A stretch of 64,000 nucleotides of DNA from IMG/VR virus record IMGVR_UViG_3300012930_000003, positions 1,246 to 65,245 of that record. One strand, given 5' to 3'. This DNA is from a virus (lineage: Duplodnaviria > Caudoviricetes). A program made the position numbers and the translations under genes. Positions 7,519-56,838 of the stretch are shown one piece after another (positions within the stretch are counted from its first letter, which is position 1; each line of letters starts with the position of its first letter). The notes below the pieces were generated by a model. The model was not told the origin of the DNA and made no database searches. It saw only the letters and a program-made list of their open reading frames with translations.

Positions 7519-9021
7519 TCAGTCCCCGCCGAGCCGCTTTTCGTGCTTGTTGAAGATACCTTGGGCCGCGTCCGAATCCGGCGGGAATTCCAGTTTGGCG
7601 GCCAGCGGTTCGCAGACCTGATCCCAGACGCCTTGCAGCATATCGGGGTCGTCGACGGCGGCGAGTTCGGTATCAATCAATTTTAGAATTGCCTCGGGGT
7701 CCGTCGGCGCGTCGGGTGCGTCGCCGTCCATATCGCCGGGCGCGTTCATATCGGCCGGCGGCGCGGCTTTCTTCGCGGCCTTTTTCTCTGCCTTTTCCTG
7801 TGCGTCCCGGAATGCCTGCATGACTTTCTCAATGGTTTTTTTGACATCACCGGCAACCGAAGGCTTGCCACGGGCCAGCTTTCCGAGAGGTTCGTTATTG
7901 AGGTCGATCCATTTATACAAAACGGAGATATCCGGCGAAGTGCGGATGAGGTCCTGATACTTGGCGGCCCATGTGTCGTAGGTCTCGCCCGTGCCTGGGA
8001 TTTTGTGCGGCTGCGGCCCCGGGTCGGACGGCCCATCGTCCTTTGGCGCGGGCGCGGCCGGTTTCGGTGCCGTGGTTCGCGGCGGGCCGGAACTGATCGG
8101 GTCGGCCTTGGTCTCCTTCGGCTGGCGCGGCGGCGGGGTGCCGTCGCGGGCTTCCTCGGGTTCGGTTGGGGCCGGTTCGGACTTCGGCGGGGCGATGGCG
8201 CGCGGCGGTCCCGCATCCTTGTTCCCGGTCGTGGCGGCATCGGTCACGGCTGGCATGTCGACGCTGAGATCGTGTACGTTGCGTCCGATCATTTCCTCGG
8301 CGGTGAGCTCGTTGCCGATTTCCTCGGGGAACGCGCGGCGGAGCGCGGCGGCCTCGGCGCATTTCTCAAGCTGGCCTTCGGGCCGTTCCTGCCACATCTT
8401 ATTCGGCAACTCGCTGGCGCCCTGCGTGGCGTAGGTCTCAAGCCACGCGACTTTCGGCCCGACGAACTTGCACCGCGATCCATCAACGATGCGATAGACC
8501 GTGATGCGGCACCATTCGGGGAATTCCATATCCACTGCCGCGTCTTTCCACTCGCCCTTTTCCTTCACCCGGCCCTTGAATGTCATGGTGATGGGTTCGC
8601 CGAACTGCGCTTCGTCGCAGCCGGCATATCCCTTCGTTCGGGATGCGGTGGTGCGCAACTCGCTGATGCCAGGCCAAACGGTTTCGACCATCGCGCCGCG
8701 ACCGCTATCCCACATGGGCACGATGTGAACCGGCCGCTTCATGATATCAAGGCCGCGCGACTTGCAATAGGACAGCGCCATCACAATCGAGTCGGCGGTT
8801 TTGGCTGCCGGGAAGATAGCCTCAACGAGGACCTTCCACGTTCCCTTATCGAGGCCAAATCTCTCCTCGATCGCCGGGTGATACGGCAGGCGCGCGGGCT
8901 GGAAAATCGCGACCTCGCCTTTGCTGGTTGACTGATCGGCGACGGTATCGGTTCGTTCTGCGGTCTGTGTCTGCACGGCGTCGCCTTTCGGTTTGTTTTT
9001 GATTCCGGGTGGTCGGCCCAT
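7519..9021 (-). CDS. bet: Phage single-strand annealing protein Bet (RecT family) with long Pro-rich linker
   Basis: YCKSRGLD, GISELRTTASRTKGYAG and MWQERPEGQLEKCAEAAALRRAFP motifs. Confidence 0.88.
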   Translation of the reverse strand: MGRPPGIKNKPKGDAVQTQTAERTDTVADQSTSKGEVAIFQPARLPYHPAIEERFGLDKGTWKVLVEAIFPAAKTADSIVMALSYCKSRGLDIMKRPVHIVPMWDSGRGAMVETVWPGISELRTTASRTKGYAGCDEAQFGEPITMTFKGRVKEKGEWKDAAVDMEFPEWCRITVYRIVDGSRCKFVGPKVAWLETYATQGASELPNKMWQERPEGQLEKCAEAAALRRAFPEEIGNELTAEEMIGRNVHDLSVDMPAVTDAATTGNKDAGPPRAIAPPKSEPAPTEPEEARDGTPPPRQPKETKADPISSGPPRTTAPKPAAPAPKDDGPSDPGPQPHKIPGTGETYDTWAAKYQDLIRTSPDISVLYKWIDLNNEPLGKLARGKPSVAGDVKKTIEKVMQAFRDAQEKAEKKAAKKAAPPADMNAPGDMDGDAPDAPTDPEAILKLIDTELAAVDDPDMLQGVWDQVCEPLAAKLEFPPDSDAAQGIFNKHEKRLGGD

Positions 9022-9033
9022 TTTTAGCTCCTG

Positions 9034-9363
9034 TTAAAACGGCATATCATCGTCATCGTCTGCCTTCGGACGATTGGCGGCAATCTGATTGCGGACGGCC
9101 TTGAGTTCCAAGTCCGCTTGCGCGACGGCCCCGCGCAACTGGTCGCGCTGGCGGTAAAGCTGGTTGACTTCCTCGCGGAGCGATTCGGGATCGGCGAGAA
9201 CCGGCGACTTGCCGTCTACCTGCGACCGCACCCATACCGATAATTCGAGCAAGATATCTTCGGGAACGTCGCCGTCCAAGACGGATGCCTCAGCCTCTAC
9301 GGCTTGGTGCGAGTAGCCGGGGCCGGTGACAAGCTTGCGGTAACGAACTGCGGTGATAATCAT
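9034..9363 (-). CDS. Small coiled-coil protein with SSB-like acidic tail
   Basis: Ends in DDDDDMPF. ATGA overlap with the upstream gene. Confidence 0.65.
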   Translation of the reverse strand: MIITAVRYRKLVTGPGYSHQAVEAEASVLDGDVPEDILLELSVWVRSQVDGKSPVLADPESLREEVNQLYRQRDQLRGAVAQADLELKAVRNQIAANRPKADDDDDMPF

Positions 9364-10367
9364 CTGACATCTGCCTTTTCTTCCACGGTTGCGCACGGTG
9401 TATCTATCCCTGCGTCTACGGCCTTCTGTGCAAGGTTCATAAAAAGATTGTAGACCTCGGGCATCCCGCCGAATTGATGCCACGCTTTCAGCAGATCGAT
9501 TTTGGTCACGACTTTCTTGGTGCGGACGCTCGCGGTTCGGCCGGACCCGCCCTTGATCTGCGCGGACGGCGCTGGCGTATTCGCCATCGGCTTGGCCTGA
9601 ACGGGCTTGGGAGGCTCCGGAGCGAGTTCGCCAGCCACAAGGGCCGCCGCAGCCGCTTTATCGAATTCATCGCGGGCGCGCTCATTGGCCTCGTCTGCGA
9701 TACGTTGGGCCTCAATGGTGGCCTGCCGCAGGTTCTCCCGCTTTACGTCCTCCCAAGCCTCTTGCGCCTTCCGGATATCACTAGCCCCATCGGCGGCAGA
9801 ATCCCGCAGCGGGAACCAAACCTCGCGGATGCGCTTCTGTTCGTCCAGCAGCGGCCGGTTCAAAGCCTCGTATGCCTTGGTGGCCTTGCCGCTTAGGCCG
9901 GTCAGAGCGCTGCGGAGGGTCTGAGCACGCGCGGCGGCTTCGTCGCTCTCGATGACCTTGTAGGCATCCAGGCCAGCCCGTGCGGCTGCAATCTCGGCCT
10001 TGAGCGAGCCCGCAGGGTCCGTCTCGGGGTCGATCTCGGGGCCTTTGGCGGTCGCGGCGGCGCCAGCGTCGTTGTCCAGCCACGCGCCTGTGTCCATCCG
10101 GTGCCAGTATGCCTCCGACGTGATCGGAAATCTTGAAGCATACGGCCACGTCTCAAACATCCGCAGCGGGTCCTGCGGCTGGCGGCCGTTGATGTGGCAC
10201 CTTTGCTCGCCCGTTTCGGCGTCCTTCCAGTAGGCGACGGGTTCGAATGTGCCGTCCTTTTTCTTCTGCCTATAGAATCCACTCTCGGGCGAATCCGCGC
10301 TGATCTGTCCGCGCGTTCCTTTAAGCGCGTTTTCCCACCACAAAAATTCACTTTCAACTTTAGACAT
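9360..10367 (-). CDS. Phage protein of the recombination module (helical/coiled-coil)
   Basis: 335 aa ORF, WW..AL.G...PESGFYR N-terminus, coupled to its neighbours. Confidence 0.7.
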   Translation of the reverse strand: MSKVESEFLWWENALKGTRGQISADSPESGFYRQKKKDGTFEPVAYWKDAETGEQRCHINGRQPQDPLRMFETWPYASRFPITSEAYWHRMDTGAWLDNDAGAAATAKGPEIDPETDPAGSLKAEIAAARAGLDAYKVIESDEAAARAQTLRSALTGLSGKATKAYEALNRPLLDEQKRIREVWFPLRDSAADGASDIRKAQEAWEDVKRENLRQATIEAQRIADEANERARDEFDKAAAAALVAGELAPEPPKPVQAKPMANTPAPSAQIKGGSGRTASVRTKKVVTKIDLLKAWHQFGGMPEVYNLFMNLAQKAVDAGIDTPCATVEEKADVR

Positions 10368-10908
10368 GGGTCCACTTCTCCCTGCGGACGATTAAAGAAA
10401 TCATGCGTTGTGACACGCCAAATTCGGCGGCTAAATCAACCTGCCGAACTATCCCCGGCTTATACCGTGCGCGGATTTTAACCACTTCATCATCGGTCAA
10501 TTTGGATGCTGGATTATCCTCGCCCTCCAAATAGGGAACCAGCCCCAATGCGTGAGCATGGCGAACATTCCGCACAGGGGTGCACCACTCCAAATTGGAC
10601 GGGAGATTATTCGATTTAACGCCGTTCAGATGGTTTGTGTAGGGCATGTTTTCCGGGTTCGGAATGAACGTTTTGGCAATGACGCGGTGGACTTTGATGA
10701 ACTTGCCGCGAACCCGTATTCGAAAATACCCCCTATCTAATTTTTGCGTGTAGACCATTCCGTCTGCGCTCCGACGGATTCTACCCATCGTACTGGCATC
10801 AATCATCACGCCGTTATATTCGCCCGCGCATTGCCACTGTTCGTCGGCCGATATCTGGCCTCGGGTGCCGGCGAGGGCGGCGGTCCACCATGCATATTGG
10901 TCGGTCAA
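10360..10908 (-). CDS. HNH homing endonuclease (NUMOD4-like/HNH_3) with C-terminal HTH
   Basis: VHRVIAKTFIPNP...NHLNGVKSNNLPSNLEWCT...N..H. AT-richer than its flanks. TTG start with AGGAG RBS. Confidence 0.88.
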   Translation of the reverse strand: MTDQYAWWTAALAGTRGQISADEQWQCAGEYNGVMIDASTMGRIRRSADGMVYTQKLDRGYFRIRVRGKFIKVHRVIAKTFIPNPENMPYTNHLNGVKSNNLPSNLEWCTPVRNVRHAHALGLVPYLEGEDNPASKLTDDEVVKIRARYKPGIVRQVDLAAEFGVSQRMISLIVRREKWTHV

Positions 10909-11219
10909 TATCGCGTCTCCTGCTTGGGATTGGTTTCATCTATCGGTGCGGGGTGTTTATTGAAAAATGGGTCATCGGCGCGCCAAGCGACGCTTCCATC
11001 CAGAGATGTTGCGTTGCCCGGATAGTCAAACATTTTGCGACATGCGGCGCTGTATTGCTTCGCTGTGCAAACGGCATATTTATCGACATTGCAATATGCG
11101 ACGTGTGCTGCGAAACGGTCGTGACTCCAAACCCGACAGAGTGGCGATGCGCCAAATATGGCAGTCGCAATCGCGGCAATCGCCAACGCGCTGATACCAA
11201 GAGCGATAAGTTTACGCAC
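10905..11219 (-). CDS. Small exported Cys-containing protein
   Basis: MRKLIALGISALAIAAIATA signal-like N-terminus and 4 Cys. Confidence 0.55.
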   Translation of the reverse strand: MRKLIALGISALAIAAIATAIFGASPLCRVWSHDRFAAHVAYCNVDKYAVCTAKQYSAACRKMFDYPGNATSLDGSVAWRADDPFFNKHPAPIDETNPKQETRY

Positions 11220-11616
11220 GGCTGAATTTCCTTTTCTGCGTCCCGAACCCTCGGGATTGAATTTTGGCCCGCGCCTCTTTCGGCAAGCGCGGCCGGATGG
11301 TGGTGCGGGGTTTTCGCGCGTGGCCGCCGTCGCCTCCGTATTCGAGATAAAGCCGCGCCGCGATGTCGAACGGGTCCAGACTGTGGGTCTGCCAGAACTC
11401 CGATTCGTTCATGGAATGTTGTTCGTCGTGGTGAAATCGGCACATTGGAGTTGAGTGCTTGTCGTGGGGCTTCATGCCCTTGGCGAAAAGCCCGATGCGT
11501 ATATGGCAGGGGTCTGTCATACCGACCGCGCCGCAGATGCAGCAAGGTTTGCCCTTGAGGAAGGTCAAAAACCCTCGGTCGTATAGACGTGGCTGTTTTG
11601 GGCGGACTTGGGGCAC
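11212..11616 (-). CDS. Zn-binding HNH-like nuclease (DUF968-like)
   Basis: PCCICG...DPCHIR...KPHD...PMCRFHHDEQH. Confidence 0.75.
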   Translation of the reverse strand: MPQVRPKQPRLYDRGFLTFLKGKPCCICGAVGMTDPCHIRIGLFAKGMKPHDKHSTPMCRFHHDEQHSMNESEFWQTHSLDPFDIAARLYLEYGGDGGHARKPRTTIRPRLPKEARAKIQSRGFGTQKRKFSRA

Positions 11617-11619
11617 GGC

Positions 11620-13234
11620 CTAATTCCCCGGGAACGCCAGATAGTCCTGAGTTGGTTTATCGGGTCTCCTATTTGCAACCCATCCATCGGGACGCGGTTC
11701 GCAAAGAGCCTCGACGCCAATATGTCTCGCCTCCAGCAAGCACCACTCGCTGTAGCAACGATAAACCACTTGGAGGTCCTGCGGCTGACCCTGCAACACT
11801 AATATCAGTTCCTTGACGGTCATTTCTTTTTCCTCGGTTTTCCGGTTTTCTTCGCCGCCTTCGCAACCGCTTTCACGAGGTCGCGTTTCATCGGCTTGGG
11901 GATCGGCGCCCGTTTGATGAGCGCCTGCGCGCGGTCGTATCGCGCCTCGCGTTGCTCGCGGAGTTTTGCCTCTCGGGGGCCAATTTCTCTCGTCATGGTC
12001 GCTCCGATGAAATCTTGAGCCAGATTTTCAGCGCCGCACTAGCTGCAGCTTCATGCGTCCGGAATACCTTGGCGCGGGCCGAATTGCCGCTGAGGATATA
12101 TCCGTGTCCGACAACTTGAGCGGTGTATCCAGATGACCGCGAATTCATCGCAGTTTGGATTTTTCCGTTCTCAGTGATCTGGCAATAGTTGTTGATGCCG
12201 GTGCGATAGGATTTGAAAAGCACGCCTTCGACCGTGCGCCGACCGCTGCAAAGCTGATATCCCGGGTCAATGAGTGTCTTGCTCATGGCGTAATCACCCA
12301 AAATCCGAGGATGCAAATCAGGATGATGGCCCAAGCCCCGGCGTGGGCGATTTTCATCCCCACATACGCCGCTGCATCAAGCGCGTTCGGCTCTCTGTCT
12401 ATTCTGGGCAGTTCGTCGCTGAGAAGCCTGACCATTTCGTCGGGCCATGTGTCGGAGGGGTCGCGGTTCATTTCCTCATTTCCTTCATCATGTTTTCCCA
12501 AAAATCTTCGTTCTTGGCGTCAACGTCAGTGATTTTGAAAACGACTATTGTGTCGCCGTCGCGCCAAACGTCACCATGGGATTGCACCATTTGATGGATG
12601 GCGCTTGCCACGTTCCGTTCAAGATCAACGCGCCGATACTCTTCCTCGTCGCCGCCGTTGTGTAATACAATCCGGAATGGCATGGTTCTAATCCGGCATG
12701 CCCTGATACACGGCCTTTTCGGTGGTGTAGTCGTTGATGGTGTTGGCGAACGCCTGCGCGATGTACTCAGCAGCGGCGCGGTCGACGGCATGGAAAACCA
12801 GCGTGTCGATGCTGCGCGGCATATCCTCAAATCGAGTAAGGCGCACGTTGTAGACGGCGGACTTGTCGGTGAGGATTTCCTTGTCGACGAATATTTTCAC
12901 AGAAACACTCCCATTGTGATGAGCCAAGCCACGGCGAGGGCCGCAGCGGCGATGCTGAAAGACTGGATGCGGGCGGCGGAGGTCACGACATTTCACCCCA
13001 TTTTGTATCGGGGATAAATCCGCATTTCTCTGCGAATGCGCGAGCCTGCTGCTTGGTACGAAATCCAGCCTTGTCGCAATTCTCGATCGCGCGGGCCGGA
13101 TCAAATGGCGGGCTTTTGTCATCTATGGTGTATGGGGCTGTTTGCACATCATAGCCCTGAGCCCGACACCCGATAATCGAAACGTTGCAGGGCCAACAGT
13201 GCAATTTTCCGTCCGTGAATTCTTCGTCAGCCAT
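11620..13234 (-). CDS. Cluster of small hypothetical early genes (11620-11823, 11993-12286, 12283-12501, 12468-12682, 12983-13234 and others)
   Basis: Short co-directional ORFs with start/stop overlaps. No family recognised. Confidence 0.5.
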
Positions 13235-56197: not shown

Positions 56198-56322
56198 GCT
56201 CAATGTGGCGTGCGATGGCGTACAAGATGAGGATCATGGTAAGACCGGCCATCGGGCCGCCGAAGTGAACAAGGCCGATGGCGGCGGATTTCAAGGCGAG
56301 TAGCAGGACTAAAAGCAGGAAT

Positions 56323-56838
56323 ATGAGCATGTCCGCAGTTAAGCGCCGGAAACTTCCCAGTCAAGATCGGCTAAAGCATCTTTTTGATTACGATCAAGGG
56401 ACTGGGTTTTTGATTCGGAGGGTAAATGTCAGCAATCAAAAGGCTGGGGAAAGGGCTGGTAATTTTTGCGCAAAAAGTGGCTATCGGGCCATATCTATTG
56501 ACGGAGGCCAGTACAGAGAAGCCAACGTTATATGGGCGTGGATGACAGGGGTTGATCCTTCGGGCATTGTCGATCATCGGGATTTGGTTCGAGATAACAA
56601 TGCATGGGTCAATTTGAGGCTTGGCACTCAATCACAAAACGTCGCCAATAGCCCAGTTCGAACAACCAATATTCTTGGCGTGAAAGGTGTGAGCAAAAAG
56701 CGCGGAAGGTTTAGGGTGCAAATTACAGTAGACGGAGAGAACCATCATCTCGGCACTTTTGATACGGTTGAGGAAGCGTCATCGGTGCGCATGGCTAGGG
56801 CGAAAGAACTGTTCGGCGAATTCGCGAGGCTCGCATGA
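56323..56838 (+). CDS. HNH-AP2 homing endonuclease
   Basis: LFDYDQGTG...VDHRDLVRDNNAWVNLR...SQN...GVKGV...HLGTFDTVEEA...LFGEFA. AT-rich. Confidence 0.88.
   Translation: MSMSAVKRRKLPSQDRLKHLFDYDQGTGFLIRRVNVSNQKAGERAGNFCAKSGYRAISIDGGQYREANVIWAWMTGVDPSGIVDHRDLVRDNNAWVNLRLGTQSQNVANSPVRTTNILGVKGVSKKRGRFRVQITVDGENHHLGTFDTVEEASSVRMARAKELFGEFARLA

Follow-up and report, generated by a model that had tools for sequence, protein, structure and literature searches.

An HNH endonuclease gene apparently inserted near the 5' end of a phage gene, together with a divergent copy of that end

Two adjacent genes of an uncultured phage begin with nearly the same peptide, and the locus raises the question of how a nuclease gene and the gene behind it came to share a front end that is spelled differently in each. 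The locus lies in a 64,000-nucleotide stretch of DNA (the window), bases 1246-65245 of the 65,245-bp virus record IMGVR_UViG_3300012930_000003, which has direct terminal repeats and is rated 100% complete; the phage is present in soil metagenome runs. An open reading frame (ORF) identified by its matches as an HNH endonuclease (10360-10908, minus strand, TTG start, 182 aa) is directly followed by a gene that we call X (9360-10367, minus strand, ATG start, 335 aa). A first-pass annotation had proposed that the nuclease entered X, took over its ribosome-binding site and N-terminus, and restored the gene with a recoded, cleavage-immune duplicate of the displaced end. This interpretation was largely supported. 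We consider it likely that a mobile cassette of a 'cut, insert and replace gene end' type invaded the 5' coding region of X. The resident Shine-Dalgarno (SD) sequence, the TTG and 22 codons now form the in-frame leader of the nuclease and provide its sole possible start.

The HNH ORF opens with the native X 5' fragment, the TTG plus 21 codons (10843-10908, minus strand), which reads MTDQYAWWTAALAGTRGQISAD and is fused in frame to the nuclease, continuing EQWQC. X opens with a replacement 5' end, codons 1-25 (10293-10367, minus strand, ATG at 10367-10365), which reads MSKVESEFLWWENALKGTRGQISAD and continues SPESGFYRQ. The stretches running from WW to D, at 10890-10843 in the HNH ORF and 10340-10293 in X, were identical at 13 of 16 residues, and 10 of the 11 degenerate codons at identical residues were spelled differently between the copies. 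The DNA of the two copies was identical at 28 of 48 nt, with a longest identical run of 6 nt. BLASTP of one N-terminus against the other gave E=1e-9 as a single comparison and E=1.7e-4 in a whole-genome search, and a third copy of the motif, looked for in the 64-kb window, was not found. Independent Logan contigs of run X1, probably the source run, bridged both junctions with 0 mismatches, and the arrangement is therefore not a chimeric assembly. The presence of an HNH gene and a duplicated front is confirmed, and the positions and counts first given for both copies all hold.

We detected 98 homologues of X. A single uninterrupted N-terminal motif, M[TSA]D.[FY].W[WH]..AL.G.RGP...[DE]P..G.YR, was present in 91, C replaced P in the motif in a further two, and the other five were fragments, fusions or distant sequences. 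A two-copy N-terminus was found in none of the 98, and none of the 91 has an HNH. The upstream copy of the window is ordinary for the family: P0028 starts MTDQYEWW, while P0002 has WWTAALAGTRGQISAD (16/16) and joins the motif directly to the gene body as ..WWTAALAGTRGQISADEP... Such MTDQYAWW-like starts, joined directly to [ED/S]P.SGFYR, agree with the first-pass annotation, which had predicted for HNH-free relatives a start of this kind followed at once by PESGFYR. It had named starts of the MSKVESEFL type in these relatives as evidence to the contrary; starts of the form MSK.[QE]S[DE]F do occur (P0032 and others), but in distant relatives and not in the closest ones, P0221 and L001.

We obtained 47 loci by scanning viral and metagenome contigs; 33 take in the X 5' end and represent 25 distinct sequences. 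All 33 had a single copy contiguous with the gene body and no HNH body adjoining X. When the HNH protein was compared with the 47 loci by tblastn, only its first 23 residues matched, at the X start, and nothing was found at E<=1e-3 past spurious extensions of the X-start motif.

The closest HNH-free relative with DNA was the locus L001, whose X is 76% identical in protein and 75% identical in DNA to that of the window. Its empty site reads GCC CTC GCC GGC ACC CGA GGC CAG ATA TCG GCC GAC^TCG CCC GAG AG. The sequence before the insertion point (^) is identical at 36 of 36 nt to window 10878-10843, and after it L001 continues as the window does 3' of the downstream copy. An exact 27-nt search of viral contigs matched only the L001 contig. 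We also compared contigs from three soil runs (X2, X3, and X4) of another study over 8800-12200; many parts of the region were without cover in these runs, and no inference was drawn from those gaps. One X2 contig joined 10295 to 10847, skipping 551 nt with 1 letter between, and read GCA GAT TCG (A-D-S) on the minus strand. One X3 contig, which was 91% identical to the window over 10044-10259, joined 10259 to 10841 over a skip of 581 nt, the 31 letters in between reading PQSGFYRQKR. Both are uninterrupted X alleles with a net difference of -550 nt from the window, and the 5' part of each aligned to the upstream copy and not to the downstream copy. The HNH is thus absent from 33 related loci and two bridging contigs, so that its presence is polymorphic at a fixed site. 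In the DNA, the empty site GCC GAC^TCG CCC was found in L001 and in the two contigs that skip net 550 nt. Together they support the proposed insertion about 22 codons into X, and the alignments place the HNH after codon 22 of the resident gene.

The extent of the foreign DNA was read from a codon alignment of window X with L001 X, in which we counted the degenerate codons at identical residues that had a different spelling. In codons 13-24, the downstream copy, 10 of 11 differed; in codons 25-36 the count was 6 of 11, and in codons 37-48 it was 1 of 11, with 35 of 36 nt identical. All window X codons after 25 differed at 83 of 228, and codons 13-24 were distinct from the rest of X (Fisher p=4.3e-4). 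The last foreign-type difference from L001 was at 10262-10260, after which 10259-10227 was identical at 33 of 33 nt. The unaligned 31 nt of the X3 contig end at 10260, the same boundary as that found with L001. To the left of the right junction, 6 of 12 nt differed from the empty site. Composition also stepped at both junctions: GC content and GC content at third codon positions (GC3) fell from 0.67/0.77 over the 66 nt of the native fragment to 0.51/0.59 across the HNH body and 0.47/0.48 for the 75 nt that open X, and rose to 0.63/0.73 over the remainder of the gene. The upstream copy had been described as GC-rich with an AGGAG ribosome-binding site and the downstream copy as lower in GC, like the HNH; both descriptions agree with these values (GC3 of 0.77, with AGGAG at 10921-10917; GC of 0.47 against 0.51 for the HNH body).

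The L001-like, foreign, L001-like pattern therefore delimits a foreign segment from 10842 to about 10260. This segment (10260-10842, minus strand) is about 583 nt long, made up of a 550-nt net insertion and 33 nt that overwrite native sequence, as read from the L001 flanks, the net -550 joints and the composition. The overwritten part (10260-10292, minus strand) is a co-converted tract, codons 26-36 (SPESGFYRQKK), which is not duplicated and has foreign-like synonymous sites in comparison with L001; by this alignment the foreign tract extends 33 nt past the duplicated part, to about 10260. The rest of X (9360-10259, minus strand) is native-like in its identity to L001. An arrangement in which the downstream copy was resident and only the X fragment and the HNH arrived was rejected by the same pattern. 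The replacement end looks like an X allele imported from a lower-GC lineage and not like a product of recoding in place. A differently spelled front thus stands from the earlier claim of a recoded replacement end, but an imported allele is more likely than recoding in place.

The nuclease body (E23 to V182 plus TAA, 10360-10842, minus strand) is I-HmuI-like in its family and fold matches and has no start codon of its own. The protein matched phrog_59 at E=2.7e-34 and I-HmuI (PDB 1u3e) by phmmer at E=3.8e-6 over query residues 31-124; with Pfam HNH_3 it scored 24.4 bits on the protein (cut-off 24.8) and 25.8 bits, above the cut-off, in a six-frame search. Its AlphaFold2 (AF2) model had 1u3e as the top Foldseek match (E=1.7e-6 over 174 columns) and the overall I-HmuI-type architecture of an N-terminal beta domain, the HNH and a C-terminal helical DNA-binding part. 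All 18 invariant positions in an alignment with 27 homologues were kept, including N92, H93, N105, and N114. The predicted local distance difference test score (pLDDT) was 51-61 for residues 1-20 and 96-98 from residue 21, and in the model the X-derived leader is a detached tail outside the nuclease fold.

In most of the 27 HNH homologues the start lies 0-4 residues ahead of the invariant W25 (MTERW, MTEQW, MAEEW, MW). In the window, E23-Q24-W25 directly follow the 22 X-derived residues, and the homologue starts MTE[RQ]W match from E23; all that the HNH is missing is thus its own Met-Thr. No in-frame ATG, GTG or TTG lies between 10908 and E23, and the upstream frame is open for 9 codons with no start. 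The X start with its AGGAG is therefore the only route to a complete nuclease. This AGGAG (10917-10921, minus strand, 8 nt before the TTG) is the SD sequence of the native X start and now serves the HNH fusion ORF, in support of the proposal that the nuclease uses the native ribosome-binding site and N-terminus of X. The leader was present only in the window's own two-member HNH cluster. The native X start M-T-D-Q-Y resembles the usual HNH-family start M-T-E-[RQ]-W, which may be helpful to the fusion or a coincidence.

The other half of the arrangement is the restart of X. The new ATG (10367-10365) lies within the last HNH codons, ACC CAT GTC TAA, giving an 8-nt overlap with the HNH stop (ATGTCTAA), and the MSK of the new N-terminus is dictated by this overlap with HNH codons. 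An SD-like AGGGAG, putatively functional, lies 10 nt before the ATG (10378-10383, minus strand), within the RREKWTHV codons of the HNH. From EFLWW on, the new N-terminus resembles natural family starts such as MTEFLWWQN in P0031. At 335 aa X is full length, its alignment with the family runs from one end to the other, and it is predicted to be translated anew from the cassette ATG with the conserved N-terminal domain intact. The X motif block is the most conserved part of the protein. The AF2 model of X had a pLDDT of 87.7, and residues 11-30 belong to a confident N-terminal domain (pLDDT 90-93); to judge from the model, X therefore needs a front end.

The end of the nuclease gene is coded AGG GAG AAG TGG ACC CAT GTC TAA (10360-10383, minus strand), so that ...RREKWTHV* contains the SD-like site, the ATG and the stop. 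The C-terminal RREKWTHV is shared by the window HNH with P0100, P0101, P0105, and P0109, and the HNH homologues with DNA (L013-L017, 32-46% identical) have different C-termini. The RREKWTHV* codons could be a built-in restart signal for any following gene.

X is a conserved phage protein of a DUF968-X-RecT module, with its function unassigned. It had no Pfam or NCBIfam family and no PDB relative by profile search, and its model had no fold match in PDB or BFVD at E<=0.001; the match to phrog_10477 'exonuclease' was weak (E=3e-4). A profile scan of genome contigs with the X alignment gave no relative; every occurrence of X was in a viral or metagenome contig. In the phage GenBank collection three records have X relatives, all of them remote (<30% identity). 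The model divides X into a small beta domain at the N-terminus, one helix some 100 residues long (142-245) and a C-terminal domain. Among relatives (L001-L011), X usually sits just downstream of a DUF968 gene; its place in the window is upstream of a RecT gene. Three homologues of X have unusual starts. P0084 (293 aa) begins MPGFYRQ, exactly at the window insertion site, and its 5' end may have been interrupted or lost at the same spot. P0096 (435 aa) and P0018 (390 aa) have long N-terminal extensions, perhaps from read-through fusion or a frameshift with the gene upstream; the start of P0096 resembles that of the HNH-like gene that precedes X in L011.

The cassette (10842 to about 10260) on this evidence consists of a start-less I-HmuI-type HNH gene and a foreign copy of the first 36 or so codons of X. 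The nuclease would cut or nick an uninterrupted X at or near GCC GAC^TCG CCC, a site that the insertion splits, and the break would be repaired from a cassette-bearing genome. In that repair the displaced native fragment would supply the homology on the left and the X body past about 10260 that on the right, and the HNH and the new gene front would be copied in together. A co-converted tract such as the one of 33 nt is the footprint that this kind of repair would be expected to leave. The low identity of the copies (28/48, longest run 6 nt) may stop the RecT-type recombination of the phage from deleting the nuclease, and may also leave no second intact target site. The first fusion was probably made by one-sided homologous repair plus an illegitimate join of HNH codon 3 to X codon 22.

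Several observations weigh against this reading. We infer cleavage, immunity and mobility by analogy. A recognition site wholly inside the retained 36 nt would leave the genome open to cleavage. No donor of the replacement end was found, and the best match among the 25 distinct relatives was 35 of 48 nt. Left of about codon 10 the upstream copy is not L001-like (MTDQYAWWTA vs MSDPTT..FEWWQN), and the local background relative to L001 appears to be a mosaic. Random draws from the codon usage of the phage gave 7.0 of 11 differing codons as expected (P(>=10)=0.049), and the 10 of 11 observed is only marginally beyond random; by itself it is saturation and not designed avoidance. A relative-codon-frequency measure failed to separate the copies (0.30 vs 0.29), and codon adaptation was dropped as a discriminator between them. 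The 'recoding' is imported divergence, and selection against homology between the copies is not demonstrated. The TTG is a weak start. The cassette is known from this phage alone, as one cluster with two members (assemblies of 65,245 and 65,263 nt), and the next HNH homologue is 63% identical and has an unrelated, zinc-ribbon-like N-terminus. A 154-nt contig of run X2 was 100% identical to HNH positions 10387-10540, with its flanks unseen, in a run where 16 of the 26 pieces on the region were <90% alike to the window; this contig is the sole hint of the nuclease in another background, and a weak one.

A frozen accident would account for some of these points. A single illegitimate recombination with a phage carrying [HNH][X] would have made the arrangement, with the nuclease uninvolved and immobile, and it would have been kept because X is functional. 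Joining HNH codon 3 to X codon 22 at the left junction is illegitimate under any model, no second background has been seen with flanks, and cleavage of the empty site is inferred. We regard this history as unlikely. The nuclease is full length, with every invariant position and a confident predicted fold, and the junction falls in the most conserved block of X, which is typical of homing sites. The short co-conversion tract with its sharp end is the footprint expected of break repair, and the identical 154-nt HNH piece occurs in run X2, whose other regional pieces are mostly less alike.

An in-place tandem duplication of the X 5' end, with insertion of the HNH, drift of the downstream copy and nothing imported, is considerably less probable. 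The copies are close in protein, and both belong to the GTRGQISAD sub-type, which is also that of L001, P0002, and P0014. A duplication of this kind leaves unexplained why the divergent tract runs 33 nt past the duplicated part. It also fits poorly with an upstream copy that equals L001 at 36 of 36 nt beside a downstream copy that differs at 10/11 codons, against 83/228 elsewhere, and with the fall of GC3 to 0.48.

Introns are the classical setting of I-HmuI-type HNH genes in phages, as the title of entry 1u3e also indicates. The 550 nt might accordingly be a self-splicing intron, of group I or another kind, that contains the HNH in frame and whose removal would join a 22-codon exon 1 to SPESGFYR; the insertion lies exactly between codons, and taking it out restores the family sequence. 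We give this very little credence. No Rfam match was found at E<=10 on either strand of 9300-11700, and the insert is filled by the HNH ORF and 75 nt of X coding sequence, which leaves no room for a ribozyme core. A complete, conserved replacement N-terminus with an SD-like site and an ATG would moreover be pointless in an intron. On this anatomy and the lack of an Rfam intron match, splicing appears to be excluded. An intein was rejected since a TAA (10362-10360) closes the HNH ORF and X restarts in a different frame at an ATG of its own. Least probable of all is that the shared peptide is a functional module needed by both proteins, such as a partner-binding tag, independent of any insertion: both copies are kept at the protein level and the motif is the most conserved part of X, but it occurs in 0 of the 27 aligned HNH homologues, most of which start just before W25, P0100, P0101, and P0111 being longer at the N-terminus with unrelated sequence. 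In the model the leader is detached, and its 36/36 DNA identity to an X gene shows descent and not convergence.

A cassette that replaces a gene end has counterparts in fungi. The WHO elements of Torulaspora and Lachancea replace the 3' end of FBA1 at each homing event, the displaced fragment serving as a recombination arm and the carried end giving resistance (Coughlan et al., 2020, PMC7282813). As with these elements, an endonuclease homes, in the phage presumably, into a coding gene without an intron or intein, one gene end is replaced by a divergent carried copy, the displaced old end stays beside the element as a recombination arm, a role that would be the same in the phage, and the gene end is far more diverged in nucleotides than the rest of the gene. 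The WHO enzymes differ from the phage HNH in being LAGLIDADG proteins derived from inteins that act in a eukaryotic nucleus and replace a 3' end. As described there (PMC7282813), the displaced WHO fragment is a non-expressed relic, whereas that of the phage is the translation start of the nuclease.

The mobile endonuclease ORFs of fungal mitochondria, termed mORFs, carry a foreign C-terminus, while the native C-terminus is near-identical to that of relatives (Beaudet et al., 2013, PMC3630166). The gene hybrids reported there are atp6 in Allomyces macrogynus and atp6, atp9, cox2, and nad3 in Glomus sp. Here too the inserted endonuclease ORF brings a foreign copy of a gene end, the native copy is close to relatives and the inserted copy has diverged more in DNA than in protein, and the ORF keeps phase with the host gene, as it sometimes does in mORFs. 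The mORFs are C-terminal, encode GIY-YIG or LAGLIDADG enzymes and reside in organellar genomes, and their nuclease reads through from the host gene body, whereas the phage HNH captures a start codon. The analogy drawn in the first-pass annotation, to duplicated gene ends in fungal mitochondria, fits these hybrids (PMC3630166). An endonuclease ORF within a coding gene, a second copy of the displaced end that restores the frame, a displaced end identical to L001 (36/36) and a functional end divergent in DNA and conserved in protein were all found in the window. Relic gene ends, looked for in the window, were not found. The cassette is the 5' mirror image of the WHO elements and the mORF hybrids, brought about by an HNH enzyme in a phage, with the added twist that expression of the nuclease makes new use of the orphaned gene start.

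Among phage systems, the T4 seg and mob genes (e.g., mobE) are likewise HNH or GIY-YIG genes outside introns; the presumption is that they cut an allele devoid of the nuclease and are copied in with flanking donor markers by co-conversion (PMC2790892). They lie between genes and have their own starts, with no frame interruption, start borrowing or duplicate end. The hidden HNH genes of the ShiLan type in phage methylase genes also lie inside coding sequence in which neither an intron nor an intein is detectable, and their translation poses the same open question as that of the phage HNH (Arsenault et al., 2025, PMC11855218). In ShiLan, translation of the host protein passes through the insert in another frame, and the protein accommodates it as a loop; no gene end is duplicated, and the nuclease has its own GTG start (PMC11855218). 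The cassette is also unlike genes that an endonuclease gene has broken up and that split inteins repair (PMC2677866). The HomeR drives share its design logic, a nuclease that targets a needed gene and carries a recoded rescue end; as presented in PMC7968924, HomeR is a synthetic Cas9 system in insects, and the analogy is one of function only. Full-text searches of the literature, subscription journals excepted, gave no phage homing endonuclease with a duplicated target-gene end.

The locus indicates that homing endonucleases can colonise the inside of phage coding genes without an intron, an intein or splitting of the gene. The route would be to bring in a replacement gene front while the orphaned original start drives the nuclease, which widens the range of phage sites open to selfish nucleases and accounts for one route to N-termini that are mosaic between phage lineages. 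It would be a natural counterpart of the engineered home-and-rescue gene-drive design and, at about 0.6 kb, a compact system for work on target recognition, self-immunity and the role of repeat divergence. For annotation it calls for caution: the 22-codon leader mimics a unique nuclease domain, and the start of the target gene seems atypical.

More tentatively, and with doubt outweighing belief, the cassette may represent a general class of phage 'start-capture' homing elements. These would be HNH genes without initiation signals of their own that ride on the first codons of the target and carry a portable restart module (the SD-like AGGGAG and the ATG in RREKWTHV*) re-initiating the attached gene front. 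If true, the class would be a natural home-and-rescue drive entering the 5' ends of essential phage genes, and would reshuffle N-termini between lineages, with the RecT system of the phage supplying short-homology recombination.

A second HNH_3 gene was present at 56278-56838 (plus strand, 186 aa, 39.2 bits). It has its own ATG and is free-standing between ORFs of 912 aa and 235 aa, with no captured gene start evident.

The local gene order on the minus strand begins with a DUF968/HNHc-like gene (11212-11616), followed by a low-GC ORF of 104 aa (10905-11219) between the DUF968 gene and X, and then by the HNH ORF and X. A small minus-strand ORF separates X from the gene for a RecT-family annealing protein (7519-9021), which lies just downstream of X and ends the order. 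The AGGAG sits in the 3' end of the 104-aa ORF, and the TGA of that ORF overlaps the HNH TTG. The ORF has a GC of 0.52 and a GC3 of 0.51, a hydrophobic N-terminus, several Cys and no family match. It is absent where X directly follows the DUF968 gene (L002, L005, L006, L008, L009, and L010), and contigs of runs X3 and X4 skip it along with the HNH. The 104-aa ORF looks like a separate, moron-like insertion.

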